29,351 bases of DNA from a virus: UHGV virus genome UHGV-0299584; one strand, written 5' to 3'. The position numbers were made by a program, and so were the translations under genes. The notes under the pieces were generated by a model, which worked only from the letters and a program-made list of their open reading frames with translations, had not been told where the DNA came from and ran no database searches. The first letter of the stretch is position 1. Each line of letters begins with the position of its first letter. Positions 18,876-29,351 of this stretch are shown piece after piece.

Positions 18876-19469
18876 TTATAGTAATCGCCTATCCCATTTC
18901 ACACCTGTTTTGATTATTTTTGCTGGAGTACCAGCAATAATAATATTGCTTTCAGAAAATTTACCAGTTACAGTTGCCCTTGCGCCAACAATAGTTTCAT
19001 CTGGAATAAAGGCACCTTTCATGATGAGCGCATCAAGACCAATCCAGCACTTATCTCCTATTGATATGTTTTTTGCTGGATTTATCCTGTTTCCATCCAT
19101 ATCTGTTATTGAATGTGAGTCTGTTGTTCTTATTTGAACGCCTGACGCAAACATGCAATTAACACCAATTGAAACACTAGTCCCCTCTTGAATGTTTATA
19201 TTGGTGTTCTGAAAGCTTGTAAGGCTTGATATCACGAGACAGTTCCCATCGCCTCTCATATTTACAGAGCCAACTATAGAACACCTCTCACCGATATTAA
19301 TAGTATTATTATCACCATTTATCAAAATGGATAAATTATGTATTTTTGCATGCTTTTCTATATTTATATGATTGTTCTTTCCATTAATGCGAATAGATAT
19401 TTTTTTTATGTCAGCATCAACATGATTTATAGAGTTATTTTCTCCGGAAATCTGTTTTATTATATCCAT
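18876..19469 (-). CDS. Hexapeptide-repeat (left-handed beta-helix) acetyl/acyltransferase, moron
   Basis: Product shows periodic [LIV]-G-x4 hexads (INIGERCSIVGSVNMRGDGNCLVISS..., ISIGDKCWIGLDALIMKGAFIPDETIVGARATVTG) typical of the LacA/WcaF/CysE-type family. AT-rich; sits between tailspike and int. ATG 19469 preferred over TTG 19481. Confidence 0.7.
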   Translation of the reverse strand: MDIIKQISGENNSINHVDADIKKISIRINGKNNHINIEKHAKIHNLSILINGDNNTINIGERCSIVGSVNMRGDGNCLVISSLTSFQNTNINIQEGTSVSIGVNCMFASGVQIRTTDSHSITDMDGNRINPAKNISIGDKCWIGLDALIMKGAFIPDETIVGARATVTGKFSESNIIIAGTPAKIIKTGVKWDRRLL

Positions 19470-19783
19470 CACTATACTCAATTATTTTGATTGATTTATT
19501 TACAACTTATTAATGTATATGTCATAAATTATATCATAATTTTAATAAAAATCAATATACGAGGTTTTGCATGTATATATTGTAATTTATTGCATATGTT
19601 GATAATAAATTTTATTTGATGCTTAACATAATTATCATGAAATTAGTTATTCAATAACTCTTGTTTTTTAATGTGACAATCACGTTGCTTATATTTAATA
19701 ATGAAACTATATGGTTTTATTATTAAATTTGTGTTTACCTAGATGAATTAATTGTTTTATTTATGATTTTTATCATGGAATCA

Positions 19784-20941
19784 TTAATCCACCTTTTCAT
19801 CAACCCAATCCGCCCACCACTGCATCATTTCTCTGCGCTTATCGAGATACTGAGCATGGTTGTAAATCCCGCGCACAGATCCGCCGTTGGCATGTGCCAG
19901 TTGCGCTTCAATAGCATCAGCAGGCCATTCGTGCTCGTTCATAATCGTGCTGAATTCATGCCTGAATCCGTGACCGCTTTCCAGACCCTCATAGCCGATT
20001 TGTTTGATCACAAGTAGCACCGCGTTCTCGCAGATTGGCTTTTTCTTATCGTTGCGCCCGGCAAAAACAAACTCTGATACTGGTTTGGTGATTGAACTTA
20101 GCGTAGTGAGAAGTTCAACTACCTGGTCTGACATAGGAACCACATGAATTTTGCGTCCCTTCATCACACTGGCGTCGATGGTGATAATCCTGTTTTCAAA
20201 ATCGACGTTCTTCCATAGCATGGAACGAAGCTCTTTCGTTCTTAGGGCTGTGTAGCGTAAAACTTTGGTCGCAATGAGCGATACGATACTTCCTGAAAAT
20301 GTTGCCAGTGCTTTGTTGAATGCCGGGATCTGGTCTGCAGGAAGAAACGGGAAGTTCTTCTTGCGGTATCCCTTCATGGCGTCAGCAAGGTCAGGTGCCG
20401 GGTTATATTTAGCCCTACCAGTGACAATAGCGTAACGGAAAACCTCGCCGCATCTTCTGCGGGCTTTGTTGGCTCGCTCCATTGCACCGCGATCTTCAAA
20501 TCTGCGGATTACTTCCAGTAGTTGCATCGGCTCAATATCCTGAATTTCAAGACCGCCGATGATGGGTAAAATGTCGTCATCAAACATTTTTGCAAGTTCA
20601 TTTGCATAGCCTACTGACCAGACTTGCTTCTTGTGCTCGTACCATTCCTTGTAAATGGCGCTAAAGGAATTGTTGTTAGACGAAGCCTTTTTCGCCTTTA
20701 CCGGATCGATGCCAACCGAGATGTCTTTCCTCGCAGTCCATGCTTTATCCCTTGCCTCTTGCAAAGTCATAAGCGGATATTTTCCGACGGTCAGTATTTT
20801 CTCCTTACCGTCAATCTTGTAGCGAAGCTGCCATACCTTTTTCCCTGACACAGGGACATAAAGGTACAGGCCATTACCATCGAGTAGGCGGTATGGTTTT
20901 TCTTTCGGTTTTGCTGCTTCAATCTGCTTAACGGTGAGCAT
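19784..20941 (-). CDS. int: Tyrosine integrase (P4-like family)
   Basis: Product has the typical N-terminal arm (LTVKQIEAAKPKEKPYRLLDGNGLYLYV) and C-terminal catalytic region (...HGFRHEFSTIM..., ...RGIYNHAQYLDKRREMMQWWADW). Start ATG 20941, or GTG 20977 as in the ORF track. Confidence 0.9.
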   Translation of the reverse strand: MLTVKQIEAAKPKEKPYRLLDGNGLYLYVPVSGKKVWQLRYKIDGKEKILTVGKYPLMTLQEARDKAWTARKDISVGIDPVKAKKASSNNNSFSAIYKEWYEHKKQVWSVGYANELAKMFDDDILPIIGGLEIQDIEPMQLLEVIRRFEDRGAMERANKARRRCGEVFRYAIVTGRAKYNPAPDLADAMKGYRKKNFPFLPADQIPAFNKALATFSGSIVSLIATKVLRYTALRTKELRSMLWKNVDFENRIITIDASVMKGRKIHVVPMSDQVVELLTTLSSITKPVSEFVFAGRNDKKKPICENAVLLVIKQIGYEGLESGHGFRHEFSTIMNEHEWPADAIEAQLAHANGGSVRGIYNHAQYLDKRREMMQWWADWVDEKVD

Positions 20942-20986
20942 GGGTAAAAATCCGGTGGGTAAAATTATTTTATCCACTTTTTACCC
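20942..20986. repeat. Cluster of TTTTACCC / GGGTAAAA octamers (putative arm-type Int-binding sites)
   Basis: GGGTAAAA at 20942-20949 and 20957-20964; TTTTACCC at 20979-20986, read directly. Confidence 0.4.
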
Positions 20987-21102
20987 GTCATGTAGTGCGG
21001 CTGTCAACGATCTGACGCGAACCATGACGAACTGTAAATCTACGGAAGGCTTGATATTCAGGGGATTTTGCGGACTGGTACGGATGGGAGCGAACTGATA
21101 AA

Positions 21103-21117
21103 TGGTGTCCCCTGCAG
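21103..21117 (-). other. attP core: 15-nt identity to the 3' end of tRNA-Arg (argW), flanked by an 8-bp inverted repeat
   Basis: The - strand reads CTGCAGGGGACACCA, matching the acceptor-stem/CCA end of E. coli argW from memory. TCCCCTGC (21108-21115) and GCAGGGGA (21134-21141) form a perfect inverted repeat; phage genes lie on both sides. Confidence 0.6.
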
Positions 21118-21176
21118 ACATCTACTTGAGGCGGCAGGGGATTGATTGGAATGGTGTTTTTTAGATGTGAAAAATA

Positions 21177-21196
21177 TTTTACCCGCTATTTTACCC
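21177..21196. repeat. Two further TTTTACCC octamers on the other side of the attP core
   Basis: TTTTACCCG at 21177-21185 and TTTTACCCA at 21189-21197, same motif as flanks the int start. Confidence 0.4.
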
Positions 21197-21391
21197 ATTG
21201 GCGCGGCTTAAGAGCTTATTTTTGAATTCACAATGGTCACGATATAACCATCTTGCTCGCCCGTGGATAACTTTGGCTTTAGGTAGGTCTCCGGACTTAA
21301 TCCGGTCATAGATGAAGGTCTTACCGAAGCCAGTATCGGCCATGATGAATTTCAAATCAACCAGGGAATCAGGCTGTAGTTCGTGTTGCAT
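21191..21391 (-). CDS. AlpA-family DNA-binding protein / putative excisionase
   Basis: 66-aa product with a helix-turn-helix (FIMADTGFGKTFIYDRIKSGDLPKAKVIHGRARWLYRD) resembling AlpA/Xis proteins that partner P4-like integrases; adjacent to attP. Confidence 0.65.
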   Translation of the reverse strand: MQHELQPDSLVDLKFIMADTGFGKTFIYDRIKSGDLPKAKVIHGRARWLYRDHCEFKNKLLSRANG

Positions 21392-21436
21392 GAGTGCTAT
21401 CTCCGAATAGGGAATCGAATCTGCAAATCAGGTAAT

Positions 21437-21457
21437 AAAAAACCGCCATCAGGCGGC
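21437..21457 (-). terminator. Intrinsic terminator on the - strand between the early-left operon and xis
   Basis: - strand reads CCGCC-tgat-GGCGG followed by TTTTTT. Confidence 0.5.
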
Positions 21458-21616
21458 TTGGTGTTCTTTCAGTTCTTCAATTCGAATATTGGTTACGTCT
21501 GCATGCGCTATCTGCGCCCATATCATCCAGTGGTTATGGCAGTCGTTGATGTCCTCTGCTTCGATAACCCTGTCGAATGGCTCTCCATTCCATTCACCTG
21601 TGACTCGGAAGTGCAT
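21449..21616 (-). CDS. Small ORF (55 aa) missing from the ORF track
   Basis: ATG at 21616 preceded by GGAGA. Product MHFRVTGEWNGEPFDRVIEAEDINDCHNHWMIWAQIAHADVTNIRIEELKEHQAA; its stop lies in the terminator hairpin. Confidence 0.45.
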   Translation of the reverse strand: MHFRVTGEWNGEPFDRVIEAEDINDCHNHWMIWAQIAHADVTNIRIEELKEHQAA

Positions 21617-21723
21617 TTATCATCTCCATAAAACAAAACCCGCCGTAGCGAGTTCAGATAAAATAAATCCCCGCGAGTGCGAGGATTGTTATTCACATTT
21701 GACGGCAAGTTGCAGGTTAGCCA

Positions 21724-21981
21724 TTACCGCACCTCCAGTCTCCATACCGCCTGACCAATCCGGCTGGCATATGTATCTTTGGATACTGCTCCGTCTTTAG
21801 CCAGCTCCATAAGAATTTTGCGCAAATCTGCCGAACGCCATTCTTCATCAGGAAATTCCTTCTCCATTGCCAACCGCAAATTCCAGGTTGCCATCCTGAA
21901 TGGATATTCCCCGCCGAGAGCTTTATCTTGCAGGGCAGCCCGGGAACGCATCACCTGCAAAACCTTCTCTTTTACATCCAT
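21724..21981 (-). CDS. Hypothetical early-left protein (85 aa)
   Basis: ATG overlaps the upstream stop (TGATG); last gene of the coupled chain. Confidence 0.6.
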   Translation of the reverse strand: MDVKEKVLQVMRSRAALQDKALGGEYPFRMATWNLRLAMEKEFPDEEWRSADLRKILMELAKDGAVSKDTYASRIGQAVWRLEVR

Positions 21982-22991
21982 CACTTCACCTCCTGCTGTG
22001 GTGCTGCTGGCATTTCACGCCAGTGCGTAACTGAGTGCGGATCCGGATATTCGGTGCCATCATCCCAGCGATTGCCATTCCACATTGCAGACCACATCTC
22101 ACCGTCTTCATACATGACCATTACCGGAATTAACTTATCCGGCATTCGCTCACTACAGCTTATCCAACCATCCGGAGTCACCGGAAGCGAGAACGGCAGC
22201 ACATCTCTGTGAACAAGTTTTTGCTGTGACAGGTTATCCAGAACTTTCTGTACTGCTGCATCACCGAATACACCAAGCGCATCTGCCATAACTCCTACAA
22301 CCTGATAAGCCTCAGCGCATACCGTGGATAAACCATCCGGAATTACCGGAGAGTTGCCGGGTTCTTTAATGTGCAAGCGAGGCTCACCATCTTTTGGTTC
22401 AGGCCACTGGCGCTCCATGTTGATCTTCAATTTATCTTCCATAGCAGCGGTAATTTCAGCATCGCTGATGCCAGCACGGCGCTGTGCATCCCACAACAGG
22501 AAATGCATATCAGCCCACTCGCTGAGATCGTCTGGTTCGGCTGCGGCTTCCAGAGCCTCTTTTGAGAGGTGTTTCAGTGGACCAATGGGGCCAACGCAGC
22601 CAAATGTGGAGTCAGACCATTTGGCATGCTCGTGGCGAATCAGTTCGCGTTCCAGTGATGCCAGTGCAATTCGTGCCAGTTCTTCCGCTTCTTCTGCTGG
22701 CAGTACAACGTTGCTACCAGGTCCGTATGTTTCGCGCCACCGCTTGATTGTCAGCAGTCGCTCTTTGGTAATAGTGCTCATGGGTTTTCCCTCCGCCATC
22801 TCTTCATCGGTTTCCCATAAAACTCGCGCCTGCCCCTCACAGACTTGAATGACTCCGCCACGACCGCAGGAGTTGCACTTAACGGCATCGTCATCCCACA
22901 AGGCGGTTTCATTTCCGCGAGCTGTTTTGACCGTGTGTGATTTATTCCCGCAGCGGCATTTGTTGAGCCAGTCAATAGTGAAAGTTTTCAT
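21981..22991 (-). CDS. EaA-like multidomain early protein (Cys cluster, DUF550-like, DUF551-like)
   Basis: N-terminal CxC...CxxC cluster (CRCGNKSH...CNSCGRGG); a central region resembling the dATP/dGTP pyrophosphohydrolase-like DUF550; a C-terminal domain sharing motifs with the 71-aa protein at 1633-1848. ATGA overlap with the upstream gene. Confidence 0.7.
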   Translation of the reverse strand: MKTFTIDWLNKCRCGNKSHTVKTARGNETALWDDDAVKCNSCGRGGVIQVCEGQARVLWETDEEMAEGKPMSTITKERLLTIKRWRETYGPGSNVVLPAEEAEELARIALASLERELIRHEHAKWSDSTFGCVGPIGPLKHLSKEALEAAAEPDDLSEWADMHFLLWDAQRRAGISDAEITAAMEDKLKINMERQWPEPKDGEPRLHIKEPGNSPVIPDGLSTVCAEAYQVVGVMADALGVFGDAAVQKVLDNLSQQKLVHRDVLPFSLPVTPDGWISCSERMPDKLIPVMVMYEDGEMWSAMWNGNRWDDGTEYPDPHSVTHWREMPAAPQQEVK

Positions 22992-23215
22992 GATGCCTCT
23001 CCTTTACTCGCTGCTTTCGCCTGCTCTTTAGCAAGTCGCTCCGCTTCTCTGAAATCCCAGTCAACTCGACGTGCTATATCAATTGCAGAACGCACGGTCC
23101 GTTCAATTAGCGCATCCAGATTATCGATTGTCATTGCCATATCTGGATTGCGAGATAAAATCTCCGCCCTCTGAATCTGCCAGTTGTTGCAGGTTTCAAG
23201 TAATGAGTTAGCCAT
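22988..23215 (-). CDS. Hypothetical small protein (75 aa)
   Basis: ATG 23215 with strong AGGAGAG RBS, 1 nt after the upstream stop; the longer ORF-track version lacks an RBS. Confidence 0.5.
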   Translation of the reverse strand: MANSLLETCNNWQIQRAEILSRNPDMAMTIDNLDALIERTVRSAIDIARRVDWDFREAERLAKEQAKAASKGEAS

Positions 23216-23216
23216 A

Positions 23217-23705
23217 TCACTCTCCTTTGATGCGAATGCCAGCGGCGCGCGGCACATTAACTTCCACAATGCGCACAGTTGGTTTGTACATCTCAATTGC
23301 TGTCAGCCAGTCAGCGCCAGTCATGCGCTTTTCTGCATCGCCAGTAGTCCACTTAACCGGTACACCAATAGCCTTCATCGCGATTTCTATTTCCCCGGCA
23401 ATGGCGCTTTTCCCGCAACCAGTAAAACCAGATACAACGACAAGAACTTCGCCTTTGGCTGGTTTTATTTCCCGCGCTTCCAGTTCTGCTATGCGCTTCT
23501 CTGCGGCTTCCAGCTCAACACGCAGCTTCCCTACCGTTAGCGCAATATCCTCGTTCTCCTGGTCGCGGCGTTTTATGTATTGCTGGTTTCTTTCCAGTTC
23601 ATCCAGTAGTGCGTTAGCTTCATCCTCTCTCAACACCACTGTGTCGAAGCTTTCGGCCTGCTTTTTGATTTTTGCAATCAGCGCCTGTTTGTTGATGTTG
23701 CTCAT
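23217..23705 (-). CDS. Hypothetical protein with coiled coil (Ea22-like?)
   Basis: ATG 23705 overlaps the upstream stop (ATGA). Coiled-coil segment (LRVELEAAEKRIAELEAREIKPAKGE); family assignment tentative. Confidence 0.55.
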   Translation of the reverse strand: MSNINKQALIAKIKKQAESFDTVVLREDEANALLDELERNQQYIKRRDQENEDIALTVGKLRVELEAAEKRIAELEAREIKPAKGEVLVVVSGFTGCGKSAIAGEIEIAMKAIGVPVKWTTGDAEKRMTGADWLTAIEMYKPTVRIVEVNVPRAAGIRIKGE

Positions 23706-24019
23706 TGGGCGGACTCCTGTGCTCCAAGTTTTGCCCATACTTCAAGGCTGTTATGCGAAATCAGCGCTTCGCGAACGCATGGCCTGTAGTAGTGATGGAA
23801 AGCGAAGGTCAGGCCGAGTTTTGTCGGGCGATCGTGTTTGCCAAGCAATCCCAGGCGAATACAGATAGTCGTTGCCGTGTAGCCAGAGTGATAGCCAGCA
23901 GCACGCTTCATGACTGTTTCTGCCAGAATGGTGCGGAAATCAGTTCGCCCGAAATTGGTACCTTCGAAAGCGGCGTTAACCACTTCGTCTGTAAGATGTG
24001 AATCATCAACTATGCTCAT
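23702..24019 (-). CDS. Hypothetical protein (105 aa)
   Basis: ATGA overlap with the upstream gene; no recognisable motif. Confidence 0.55.
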   Translation of the reverse strand: MSIVDDSHLTDEVVNAAFEGTNFGRTDFRTILAETVMKRAAGYHSGYTATTICIRLGLLGKHDRPTKLGLTFAFHHYYRPCVREALISHNSLEVWAKLGAQESAQ

Positions 24020-26699: not shown

Positions 26700-27313
26700 T
26701 CGGAAGGAAGTCCAATCATCTTATTCAAATCTTCTACCCGTAAAGCAGGAAGTGCTGTACTTGCTTTATCTGCTTCTTTTGGTAGCAACTCTTTGCTTTC
26801 AGGCCAAACTTCAATAAGTCGCTTAACTGTTGTGACTGAGTTCAAAGCAGCCCATACATTTGATTCGATATCCTTTTTCTTGGCTTCAAGTTTTTGTTGC
26901 AATGCGCAGATTTCATCAAACCTTTTTGTTATTTCGTGTTCTGCGTCAAACATGCATTTATCTTTTTCTGGGGTGGGGAGCAATATATCTTCACCGTTGC
27001 CGTCTTTTCCGTATGAATGCCAGCCAACTCTTCTGCCAGATACAGTCAGATAAATTGAAGCAAAACGAACATCGCATGAGTAAAATGAACATCCCAGTTT
27101 TTCAAGTTCTTCACTTATAGCTACTAACTTGGATGATAACTGATCCACTTCCTCAGTTTTCTTTTTACCGCCAAACGCAATAACTCTGGCGTCAAGTGCA
27201 AGCTGGTTCTTTAACTTTATTACTTCTTCAAGTTCAGTGAAAACCCCAGACTTAATTAAAGCGTTACGAGCGATTTCCTCTTTCATTCTCGTAGTTAAGC
27301 GGATTGATGACAT
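26690..27313 (-). CDS. Unrecognised 207-aa protein, AT-rich, between N and cIII
   Basis: ATG 27313 with GAGAGGAA RBS, 11 nt after the N stop. No transmembrane segment or motif I recognise. Visibly lower GC than flanking genes (not computed). Confidence 0.6.
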   Translation of the reverse strand: MSSIRLTTRMKEEIARNALIKSGVFTELEEVIKLKNQLALDARVIAFGGKKKTEEVDQLSSKLVAISEELEKLGCSFYSCDVRFASIYLTVSGRRVGWHSYGKDGNGEDILLPTPEKDKCMFDAEHEITKRFDEICALQQKLEAKKKDIESNVWAALNSVTTVKRLIEVWPESKELLPKEADKASTALPALRVEDLNKMIGLPSEAA

Positions 27314-27624: not shown

Positions 27625-27937
27625 GTTGACCTCCGATGAAACAACTTTGGAATTTTTTTATTACAAAGTGGTTTCCTTCCCCGCCAATTAGACGGGGATG
27701 GAAGAGCATTTATGAGCCTTCATGGACTCTGCTCGATCAGTTCTATTTAATTAATCTCTCAATTGAATGTAAGTATTCACATAAATCCTCCTACCTCTTG
27801 TGCAGCTTTCTTGAATATGGTGGCGGCTGCATAACGCCTATGGAATTGACTTTGGCGGTGACGCGCCGGGTGCTTATCTTCCGGTTGCCGTCGTGCAGCT
27901 GCACTTCACGTCACCCCAAAGCCAACTACTCTTTGGT

Positions 27938-27978
27938 TCCCGCATTTCGGCGGGACAATCCCATCAATGTTAAAGAGC
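27938..27978 (-). promoter_or_regulatory. nutL: boxA (GCTCTTTAACA) plus boxB hairpin (TCCCGCCGAAATGCGGGA) on the pL transcript
   Basis: - strand reads GGCTCTTTAACA, 12-nt spacer, TCCCGCCGAAATGCGGGA; the same 18-nt boxB recurs in nutR at 29094-29111. Confidence 0.65.
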
Positions 27979-28025
27979 CTGCCAATCTGTTCCGTTTGGC
28001 TACCAGCGTCCTGCTGATGGCTTAA

Positions 28026-29111: not shown

Positions 29112-29169
29112 ATACAACGCGCATAAGTTGATGCGCATAACTTCTTATTTGTTAAGGAAATACTTACAT

Positions 29170-29351
29170 ATGGTTCGTGCAAACAAACGCAACGAGGCTC
29201 TACGAATCGAGAGTGCGTTGCTTAACAAAATCGCAATGCTTGGAACTGAGAAGACAGCGGAAGCTGTGGGCGTTGATAAGTCGCAGATCAGCAGGTGGAA
29301 GAGGGACTGGATTCCAAAGTTCTCAATGCTGCTTGCTGTTCTTGAATGGGG
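29170..29351 (+). CDS. cII: CII-type transcriptional activator, 5' part (runs off the window end)
   Basis: ATG 29170 with AAGGA RBS; translation MVRANKRNEALRIESALLNKIAMLGTEKTAEAVGVDKSQISRWKRDWIPKFSMLLAVLEW matches lambda CII as recalled. Absent from the ORF track because no stop falls within the window. Confidence 0.8.
   Translation, partial: MVRANKRNEALRIESALLNKIAMLGTEKTAEAVGVDKSQISRWKRDWIPKFSMLLAVLEW

Follow-up and report, generated by a model that had tools for sequence, protein, structure and literature searches.

The window analyzed here (the whole stretch of 29,351 nucleotides of virus genome UHGV-0299584) derives from a P22/HK620-like temperate phage of E. coli, with Louie and IME10 as its nearest relatives. 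Its minus strand carries a 55-codon open reading frame at positions 21449–21616 (ATG at 21616–21614, TGA at 21451–21449), preceded at a distance of 6 nt by a GGAGA Shine-Dalgarno sequence (21623–21627, minus strand) that was identified both by reading of the sequence and by script. The two elements had already been described in a first-pass annotation made from the sequence alone, and the coordinates match. Its description of the frame as unannotated applies to the open reading frame track with a 60-aa cut-off, but not elsewhere, as the gene is annotated in lambda, HK022, HK140, Louie, and E. coli RefSeq genomes. Likewise, the product that it called unknown is not novel, being that of lambda orf55 (phrog_676).

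The window ORF matched the profile of phrog_676, a family of unknown function, over its entire length (residues 1–55 of 55, E = 2e-38), and its product shares 93% amino acid identity with that of lambda-derived contigs. The lambda homolog is lambdap35 (orf55, NP_597778; NC_001416 positions 29118–29285), which is situated directly upstream of lambda xis. The HK140 record carries the note "similar to lambdap35" on the same ORF, HK022_33 is described in the HK022 genome as an "undocumented homolog present in lambda", and 317 phage records were matched by the region (megablast). In the literature, the gene is named orf55 and stands last among the ORFs of the non-essential exo-xis region (PMC3824215). 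Two further papers use "ORF55" for unrelated proteins, namely a phage T5 ssDNA-binding protein and the DruSM1 ligase. Based on sequence comparison, the window ORF is the homolog of lambda orf55, long known and already publicly annotated, and nothing about it is categorically new.

Copies were compared using a set of 67 distinct cassettes from IMG/VR and phage records, 66 of which contain no alignment gap in the ORF. At the Shine-Dalgarno site, the string TTATGGAGATGATAAATG is identical in 66 of the 67 copies, and GGAGA is also retained in a divergent copy (L110). Both HK022 records (L001 and L193) lack one A after ATGC, which brings an upstream ATG (ATGGAGATGATAAATGCC) into frame; the resulting 59-aa product (MEMINAFRVTG...) may be a genuine variant or stem from a sequencing error that was carried over.

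Hairpins around orf55

The frame is enclosed by hairpins on its own (minus) strand. Hairpin H3 (21434–21459) consists of AAGCCGCC-TGAT-GGCGGTTT at 21459–21440 followed by TTTTTTATT; its U run, TTTTTT at 21442–21437, is succeeded by ATT. Its 5′ arm is formed by the last two Ala codons of orf55, and the TGA lies within the 4-nt loop with six Ts behind it, which bears out the earlier claim that the stop codon sits inside a CCGCC/GGCGG hairpin followed by a U run. Two further hairpins are located upstream of the ORF: H1 (21656–21687, minus strand), with the stem-loop AATCCTCGC-ACTC-GCGGGGATT at 21687–21666 and the U-rich tail TATTTTATCT, and H2 (21626–21655, minus strand), with the stem-loop GAACTCGC-TACG-GCGGGTTT at 21655–21636 and the tail TGTTTTATGG, which runs into the Shine-Dalgarno sequence. 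Both fall inside the coordinates of the first-pass annotation but are absent from its description.

Predicted folding energies were −13.1 kcal/mol for H1 (z −5.7), −11.0 kcal/mol for H2 (z −5.1), and −13.0 kcal/mol for H3 (z −4.0; 0 of 200 shuffles folded as well). At all three sites, the scan found a G+C-rich stem-loop directly before a U-rich tract on the transcribed strand. The scan is weakly specific (11 sites versus 5.0 ± 2.4 expected in 5 kb), and the terminator call finds its real support in the presence, on one strand and within 250 nt, of three sites combining a hairpin with a U tract, and in their conservation in relatives. The H1 sequence is annotated as "tL4 terminator" in HK022 record X51962, and the HK140 record places a "rho-independent terminator" over the stop codon, after HK140_031, corresponding to H3. 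In the open literature on tL4 and tL3, we found tL3 in cloning vectors only, and no paper measuring H1–H3.

Conservation differs among the three hairpins. H2 is present in all 67 distinct copies, with a G/A polymorphism that converts a U·G pair to U-A. H1 is absent or replaced in approximately one eighth of copies, which have another hairpin or no convincing one together with the same T tract, which means that two barriers upstream of the ORF are not a requirement. For H1 and H2, 98% of alignment cells were paired and one compensatory pair was detected, with 72 of 500 shuffles scoring as high; covariation did not exceed that of the shuffles because the copies are 94%–98% identical. The stop-in-loop arrangement of H3 is kept in 12 more distant homologs (11 at 50%–60% amino acid identity, and L110 at 82%), and a U run stands behind the stop-overlapping hairpin in 11 of these. 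The 12 homologs end in Ala-Ala-stop or similar, these codons forming the 5′ arm, and differing stems occur among them (GGCUGCC/GGCGGCC, GGUCGC/GCGGCC, GGCUGC/GCGGCC, and GCCGC/GCGGC), which were compared by eye and without a pair count, as the MAFFT alignment was out of structural register. A clade at approximately 37%–50% amino acid identity is without a stop-overlapping terminator. Conservation of the stop-in-terminator design across distant homologs seems a modest point worth keeping.

At four distant loci (L194, L196, L198, and L200), the gene border upstream of the homolog also bears a near copy of the terminator, with a stop codon in the loop. The homolog in L200 is flanked by direct repeats of the terminator, and a linker (GGGTAACTACAGAGGGTAAGG) recurs before start codons in the clade at 50%–60% identity.

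The leftward early operon and the mosaic cassette

On the minus strand, a cI-like repressor gene (28795–28145) and then Cro precede a pL-like promoter detected by promoter scan (TTGACC-17-TAAATT, 28053–28025). Downstream of this promoter are a boxA-like sequence (GCTCTTTAAC) and a CCCGCC/GCGGG boxB-like hairpin, the fold of which is not significant, and an arginine-rich N-like protein is encoded, whose match to Pfam N_peptide (E = 0.0034) is below the cut-off. The leader from the pL-like promoter to the N-like gene (27625–28025), which holds GCTCTTTAAC and the hairpin, is unusually long (~400 nt) and is overlapped by a 129-aa ORF on the opposite strand. Three terminator-like hairpins are clustered at 26701–26498 (minus strand), after a gene with an Nmad5 domain, and resemble a tL1/tL2-type cluster. 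The order of the operon on the minus strand is repressor, Cro, pL, boxA, N-like gene, the terminators at 26701–26498, recombination and ea-type genes (including Erf, Abc2, and Ea22-like), H1-H2-orf55-H3, xis, attP, and int. As first proposed, orf55 closes the leftward early operon ahead of xis, and its end coincides with a hairpin of the terminator type. A simple scan for sigma-70-like sequences, with weak or non-sigma-70 promoters outside its reach, gave no promoter on the minus strand between the pL-like one (28053–28025) and an int-proximal site at 20991–20964. Also on the minus strand, positions 21981–22991 encode a 336-aa protein with a dATP/dGTP pyrophosphohydrolase domain, DUF551, and a Cys-rich N terminus, the Louie counterpart of which is annotated as a Lar-like restriction alleviation protein.

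Downstream of orf55, alignment to HK620 identified TTACCTGATTTGC (21423–21435, minus strand) as the counterpart of an annotated cII-binding site (TTGCCTGATTTGC), which in the HK620 record belongs to a "phage integration" promoter and directly follows H3. The window site has A for G in the first half-site (TTAC versus TTGC); many relatives have TTGC, and a minority share the A. This change may weaken a cII-dependent promoter, if the promoter is real. The next gene, xis (21191–21391, minus strand), encodes a TorI/AlpA-like excisionase of 66 aa recognized by its match to phrog_66 ("excisionase and transcriptional regulator"). Its HK620 homolog hkaC is annotated as TorI, and a match of the window protein to Pfam HTH_17 is below threshold. 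The attP core (21102–21117, minus strand) was placed between xis and int, in agreement with the earlier assignment, by homology to HK620: the attP region is 95% identical, and the attP core annotated in the HK620 record aligns there. Since attP intervenes between xis and int, transcription from pL cannot reach int in the prophage. The suggestion that both xis and int are served by pL does not hold for int in that state, and int is reachable only on the circular genome.

Alignment to relatives delimits a conserved orf55 cassette (21434–21697, minus strand) composed of H1, H2, the Shine-Dalgarno sequence, orf55, and H3. The cassette is ~260 bp long and 94%–98% identical to lambda, HK022, HK140, and Louie, with unrelated flanks. 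As a 271-bp module, it occurs in 2,570 of 5,426 complete E. coli genomes (~47%), in up to 8 places per genome. Homology breakpoints cluster at module positions q1–10 or q30–37 on the left, immediately ahead of H1 or at the T tract that follows it, and at q264–271 on the right, directly behind the T run of H3. H1 belongs to the upstream side of the cassette. The hairpin is part of a mobile cassette common to lambda itself and is not peculiar to this phage. Relatives of P0108 were sought in viral contigs, and none was found there. Matches to genome contigs were rejected as evidence of host range, as they are mostly lambda DNA contaminating assemblies of unrelated bacteria; lambda DNA was present in one-genome-per-species assemblies of Shewanella, Pseudomonas, Kitasatospora, Oceanobacillus, and others (L005–L026), and several of these contigs are ~48.5 kb in length, which points to contamination with lambda control DNA.

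Among 100 loci, the next gene downstream encoded lambda Xis in 41, a TorI/AlpA-like Xis as in the window in 26, the 114-aa ORF of HK022 in 16, the AlpA-like protein of HK140 in 9, and a 71-aa ORF in 5, while a DUF1233 excisionase gene is next in L110. An excisionase-type gene is next in 76 of the 98 scored relatives, and the excisionases are of several types unrelated to one another. Since the next gene is not an excisionase in homologs at 50%–60% amino acid identity, nor in more distant groups, orf55 and xis are linked by position, and only within the E. coli lambdoid group. Upstream neighbors belong to at least 14 families. Parts of the cassette also occur separately: H1 and H2 are found alone, without orf55, in Salmonella P22-like phages (e.g., BTP1), and the last 45 nt of orf55 together with H3 are found alone, after eaG, in P22 and HK620. 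Stx phages of the Min27/933W type have another ORF, rich in Cys, between H1-H2-GGAGATGAT and the orf55 tail (the last ~50 nt in Min27) with H3. The shell in Min27 (L192 positions 1201–1646, and the same in 933W-type Stx2 phages) encloses the Cys-rich 103-aa ORF03. The arrangement looks like a cargo swap inside a terminator-bounded slot before xis, and reuse of the cassette shell around other cargo genes seems, again, a modest point worth keeping.

Proposed working of the cassette and nature of the Orf55 protein

We propose, with a probability of roughly three in four, that the lambdoid orf55 cassette is the last unit of the pL operon before xis, that it is gated by N, and that its hairpin-bearing ends act as crossover points. 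Because no sigma-70-like promoter was detected within the cassette, orf55 and then xis would be transcribed solely by terminator-ignoring polymerases arriving from upstream, which under the lambda paradigm would have started at pL and been modified by N. Transcription that is stray or lacks this modification would halt, mainly at H1 and H2, leaving Xis off in the lysogen, and H3 would terminate only when no ribosome finishes orf55. In recombination between phages, the hairpin-bearing ends would serve as points of crossover, which could account for the very wide spread of the cassette and for the recurrence of its ends on either side of other genes. H1 and H2 are better placed as a barrier than H3 and, since they lie upstream of the ORF, orf55 itself is also behind that barrier. 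Overall, the observation made in the first-pass annotation was confirmed and its interpretation supported in part, N-dependent read-through gating xis being plausible by analogy with lambda.

We consider it possible, though somewhat improbable, that the hairpins are mainly recombination linkers at gene borders whose activity as terminators is without regulatory consequence for xis. Such a role would fit the clustering of breakpoints at H1 and directly behind the T run of H3, the occurrence of the ends without the ORF (P22, HK620, and BTP1) or around a different one (Min27), the near-identical terminators on both sides of the L200 homolog, and the many unrelated neighbors. However, distant homologs keep a stop-overlapping hairpin and U run despite having other stem sequences, and retention of the structure with different stems suggests selection on structure rather than on a fixed recombination sequence. 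Linkers and an N-gated last unit of the pL operon are compatible, and both can hold.

For the N-gated cassette, the location of the stop codon within H3 may be consequential. When a stop codon was moved from 28 to 5 bp before a terminator, termination dropped from ~90% to <10%, because the ribosome masks the hairpin (PMC4824070). Given this form of ribosome repression, and since the stop codon of orf55 is inside the hairpin, H3 may be a weak barrier whenever orf55 is translated. An unlikely extension is that orf55 translation masks H3 and couples xis transcription to it, beside N, with Orf55, which has invariant W9, E19, and D22 residues and an acidic EAEDE patch, perhaps acting as a small inhibitor of a host factor timed to excision.

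The HK97/HK022 and HK620 genome papers reportedly describe morons and linker sequences in the mosaicism of lambdoid phages, and the orf55 cassette is similar to these: its accessory gene is small and accompanied by a terminator, homology breaks off sharply at its borders, and the cargo between its conserved ends can be exchanged. A promoter of its own is among the defining features of a moron. We regard it as very unlikely that orf55 is such a gene, expressed from the repressed prophage in the service of host or lysogen. Consistent with this role are the terminator downstream (H3), the dispensability of the gene within the non-essential exo-xis region (PMC3824215), and its extremely wide distribution in E. 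coli genomes next to varied neighbors. In contrast to morons, no promoter of its own was detected for the cassette, the simple sigma-70-type scan yielding no site in or near 21617–21760 (minus strand), and H1/H2 end 8 nt before the Shine-Dalgarno sequence, which leaves no space for a promoter between these hairpins and orf55.

We assessed whether orf55 evolves as a protein-coding gene, for which the first-pass annotation had suggested reading-frame conservation in relatives and codon-level dN/dS as checks. The 55-codon frame and the same stop position are intact in all 66 gap-free distinct copies, so the frame is kept. Across these copies, variable sites are distributed over codon positions 1, 2, and 3 in a ratio of 13:2:21, with mostly conservative amino acid changes, and the pN/pS of the orf55 frame (0.21) is the lowest among the six frames. 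Compared with L110 (76% DNA identity), pS is 0.70, which is near saturation, and pN is 0.145, giving a dN/dS of ~0.08. On account of the intact frames, the codon-position pattern, pN/pS, dN/dS, and the existence of distant relatives, orf55 is judged to be a real protein gene under strong purifying selection.

Two antisense ORFs on the plus strand, 21383–21631 (82 aa) and 21489–21800 (103 aa), were rejected as genes; both are open across orf55 in most copies, but they either have pN/pS values of 0.6 to 1.1 or mirror the sense frame, a substitution pattern unlike that of coding sequence. A candidate RNA element in codons 43–52, where close copies have few synonymous changes, was dropped given the many synonymous changes there relative to L110.

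Orf55 is acidic (pI 4.9, net charge of about −7), and its AlphaFold2 model (pLDDT 90.6) has a beta-beta-alpha-beta arrangement and a flexible tail at the C terminus. When 1.8 billion representatives were searched with a profile, relatives down to ~37% identity were recovered, which have in common W9, E19, D22, and the motif WNGExF..RVIEAEDE. In one distant clade (L271–L275), the Orf55-like domain is N-terminal in a protein of 124–180 aa and is fused to a longer C-terminal region. Searches of Pfam and NCBIfam returned no family for the orf55 product, and a PDB sequence search returned no match at E ≤ 1. Our guess is that Orf55 is a small acidic protein of a binding or inhibitor type. A genome-wide CRISPRi screen left orf55 out, as it has no PAM site (PMC10695390).

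A modeling study speculated that Orf55 modulates RNA polymerase like T7 Gp2, and proposed N43 and R45 as counterparts of the critical Gp2 arginines (PMC8614690). Orf55 does resemble T7 Gp2, RNA polymerase epsilon, and phi29-type p56 in combining a small beta-beta-alpha-beta fold with acidic character. However, alignment of the Orf55 profile with that of T7 Gp2 (hhalign; Gp2 sequence verified against PDB) gave a probability of 1.5%, and N43 and R45, proposed to correspond to the two arginines with which Gp2 contacts the beta′ jaw, are variable in the family at large. Because of this low profile probability and the lack of conservation at N43/R45, the analogy is one of fold resemblance only; a Gp2-like role as inhibitor or modulator of host RNA polymerase is not supported, and we hold it to be highly doubtful. 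It is barely credible that orf55 is a leader-type or chance frame in which conservation resides in RNA, be it the hairpins or an sRNA, with the peptide functionless: the very high DNA conservation, the few synonymous changes in codons 43–52 among close copies, and the persistence of the 3′ 45 nt and H3 without the remaining ORF in P22 and HK620 would suit such a frame, but it is already contradicted by the substitution pattern (the low dN/dS, with synonymous sites saturated versus L110, codons 43–52 included), as well as by the retention of WNGExF..RVIEAEDE in homologs down to 37% identity, the confident structure model, and an Rfam scan of window positions 19000–24000 that returned no match at E ≤ 1 and so no known sRNA, put RNA, or riboswitch.

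Significance and comparison with known systems

The finding is an ordinary one, as public annotation of lambda, HK022, and HK140 already includes the gene and its terminators, to which the window adds a further copy. Residual interest lies in Orf55 being among the few lambda genes without a known function, and in its combination of strong purifying selection with presence in ~47% of complete E. coli genomes. In addition, orf55 always marks the place where the early operon gives way to the excision module (with an excisionase next in 76 of 98 scored relatives), and the placement of its stop codon in a terminator bears on the interplay of translation and termination before xis.

Among annotated counterparts, the HK022 tL4 (H1) and the HK140 terminator (H3) are homologous to the window hairpins and occupy the same place in the cassette, and are known as annotations only. 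HK620 has attP between xis and int, as in the window. The most extensive comparison is with lambda, in which N antitermination carries transcription from pL through tL1, tL2, and tL3 and on to xis-int. The elements of the lambda pL operon that also occur in the window are a leftward promoter beside the repressor gene, a boxA-like sequence, an N-like protein, and several terminator-like sites before xis. When lambda was scanned, a hairpin just past exo, which is presumably the place of tL3, was recovered together with H1–H3. At the cassette itself, lambda is the same as the window in the 55-aa protein, the Shine-Dalgarno sequence, H1, H2, H3, and the position of the gene as the last before xis. 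Immediately behind H3 in lambda comes a TTGC-N6-TTGC repeat, which we take to be the cII recognition motif (pI site); the window has the TTAC form in its place. The neighbors also differ: in lambda, the cassette lies between ea8.5 upstream and lambda-type xis-int downstream, whereas in the window it lies between a gene for an 86-aa phrog_2814 protein upstream and a TorI-like xis, attP, and a P4-type int downstream.
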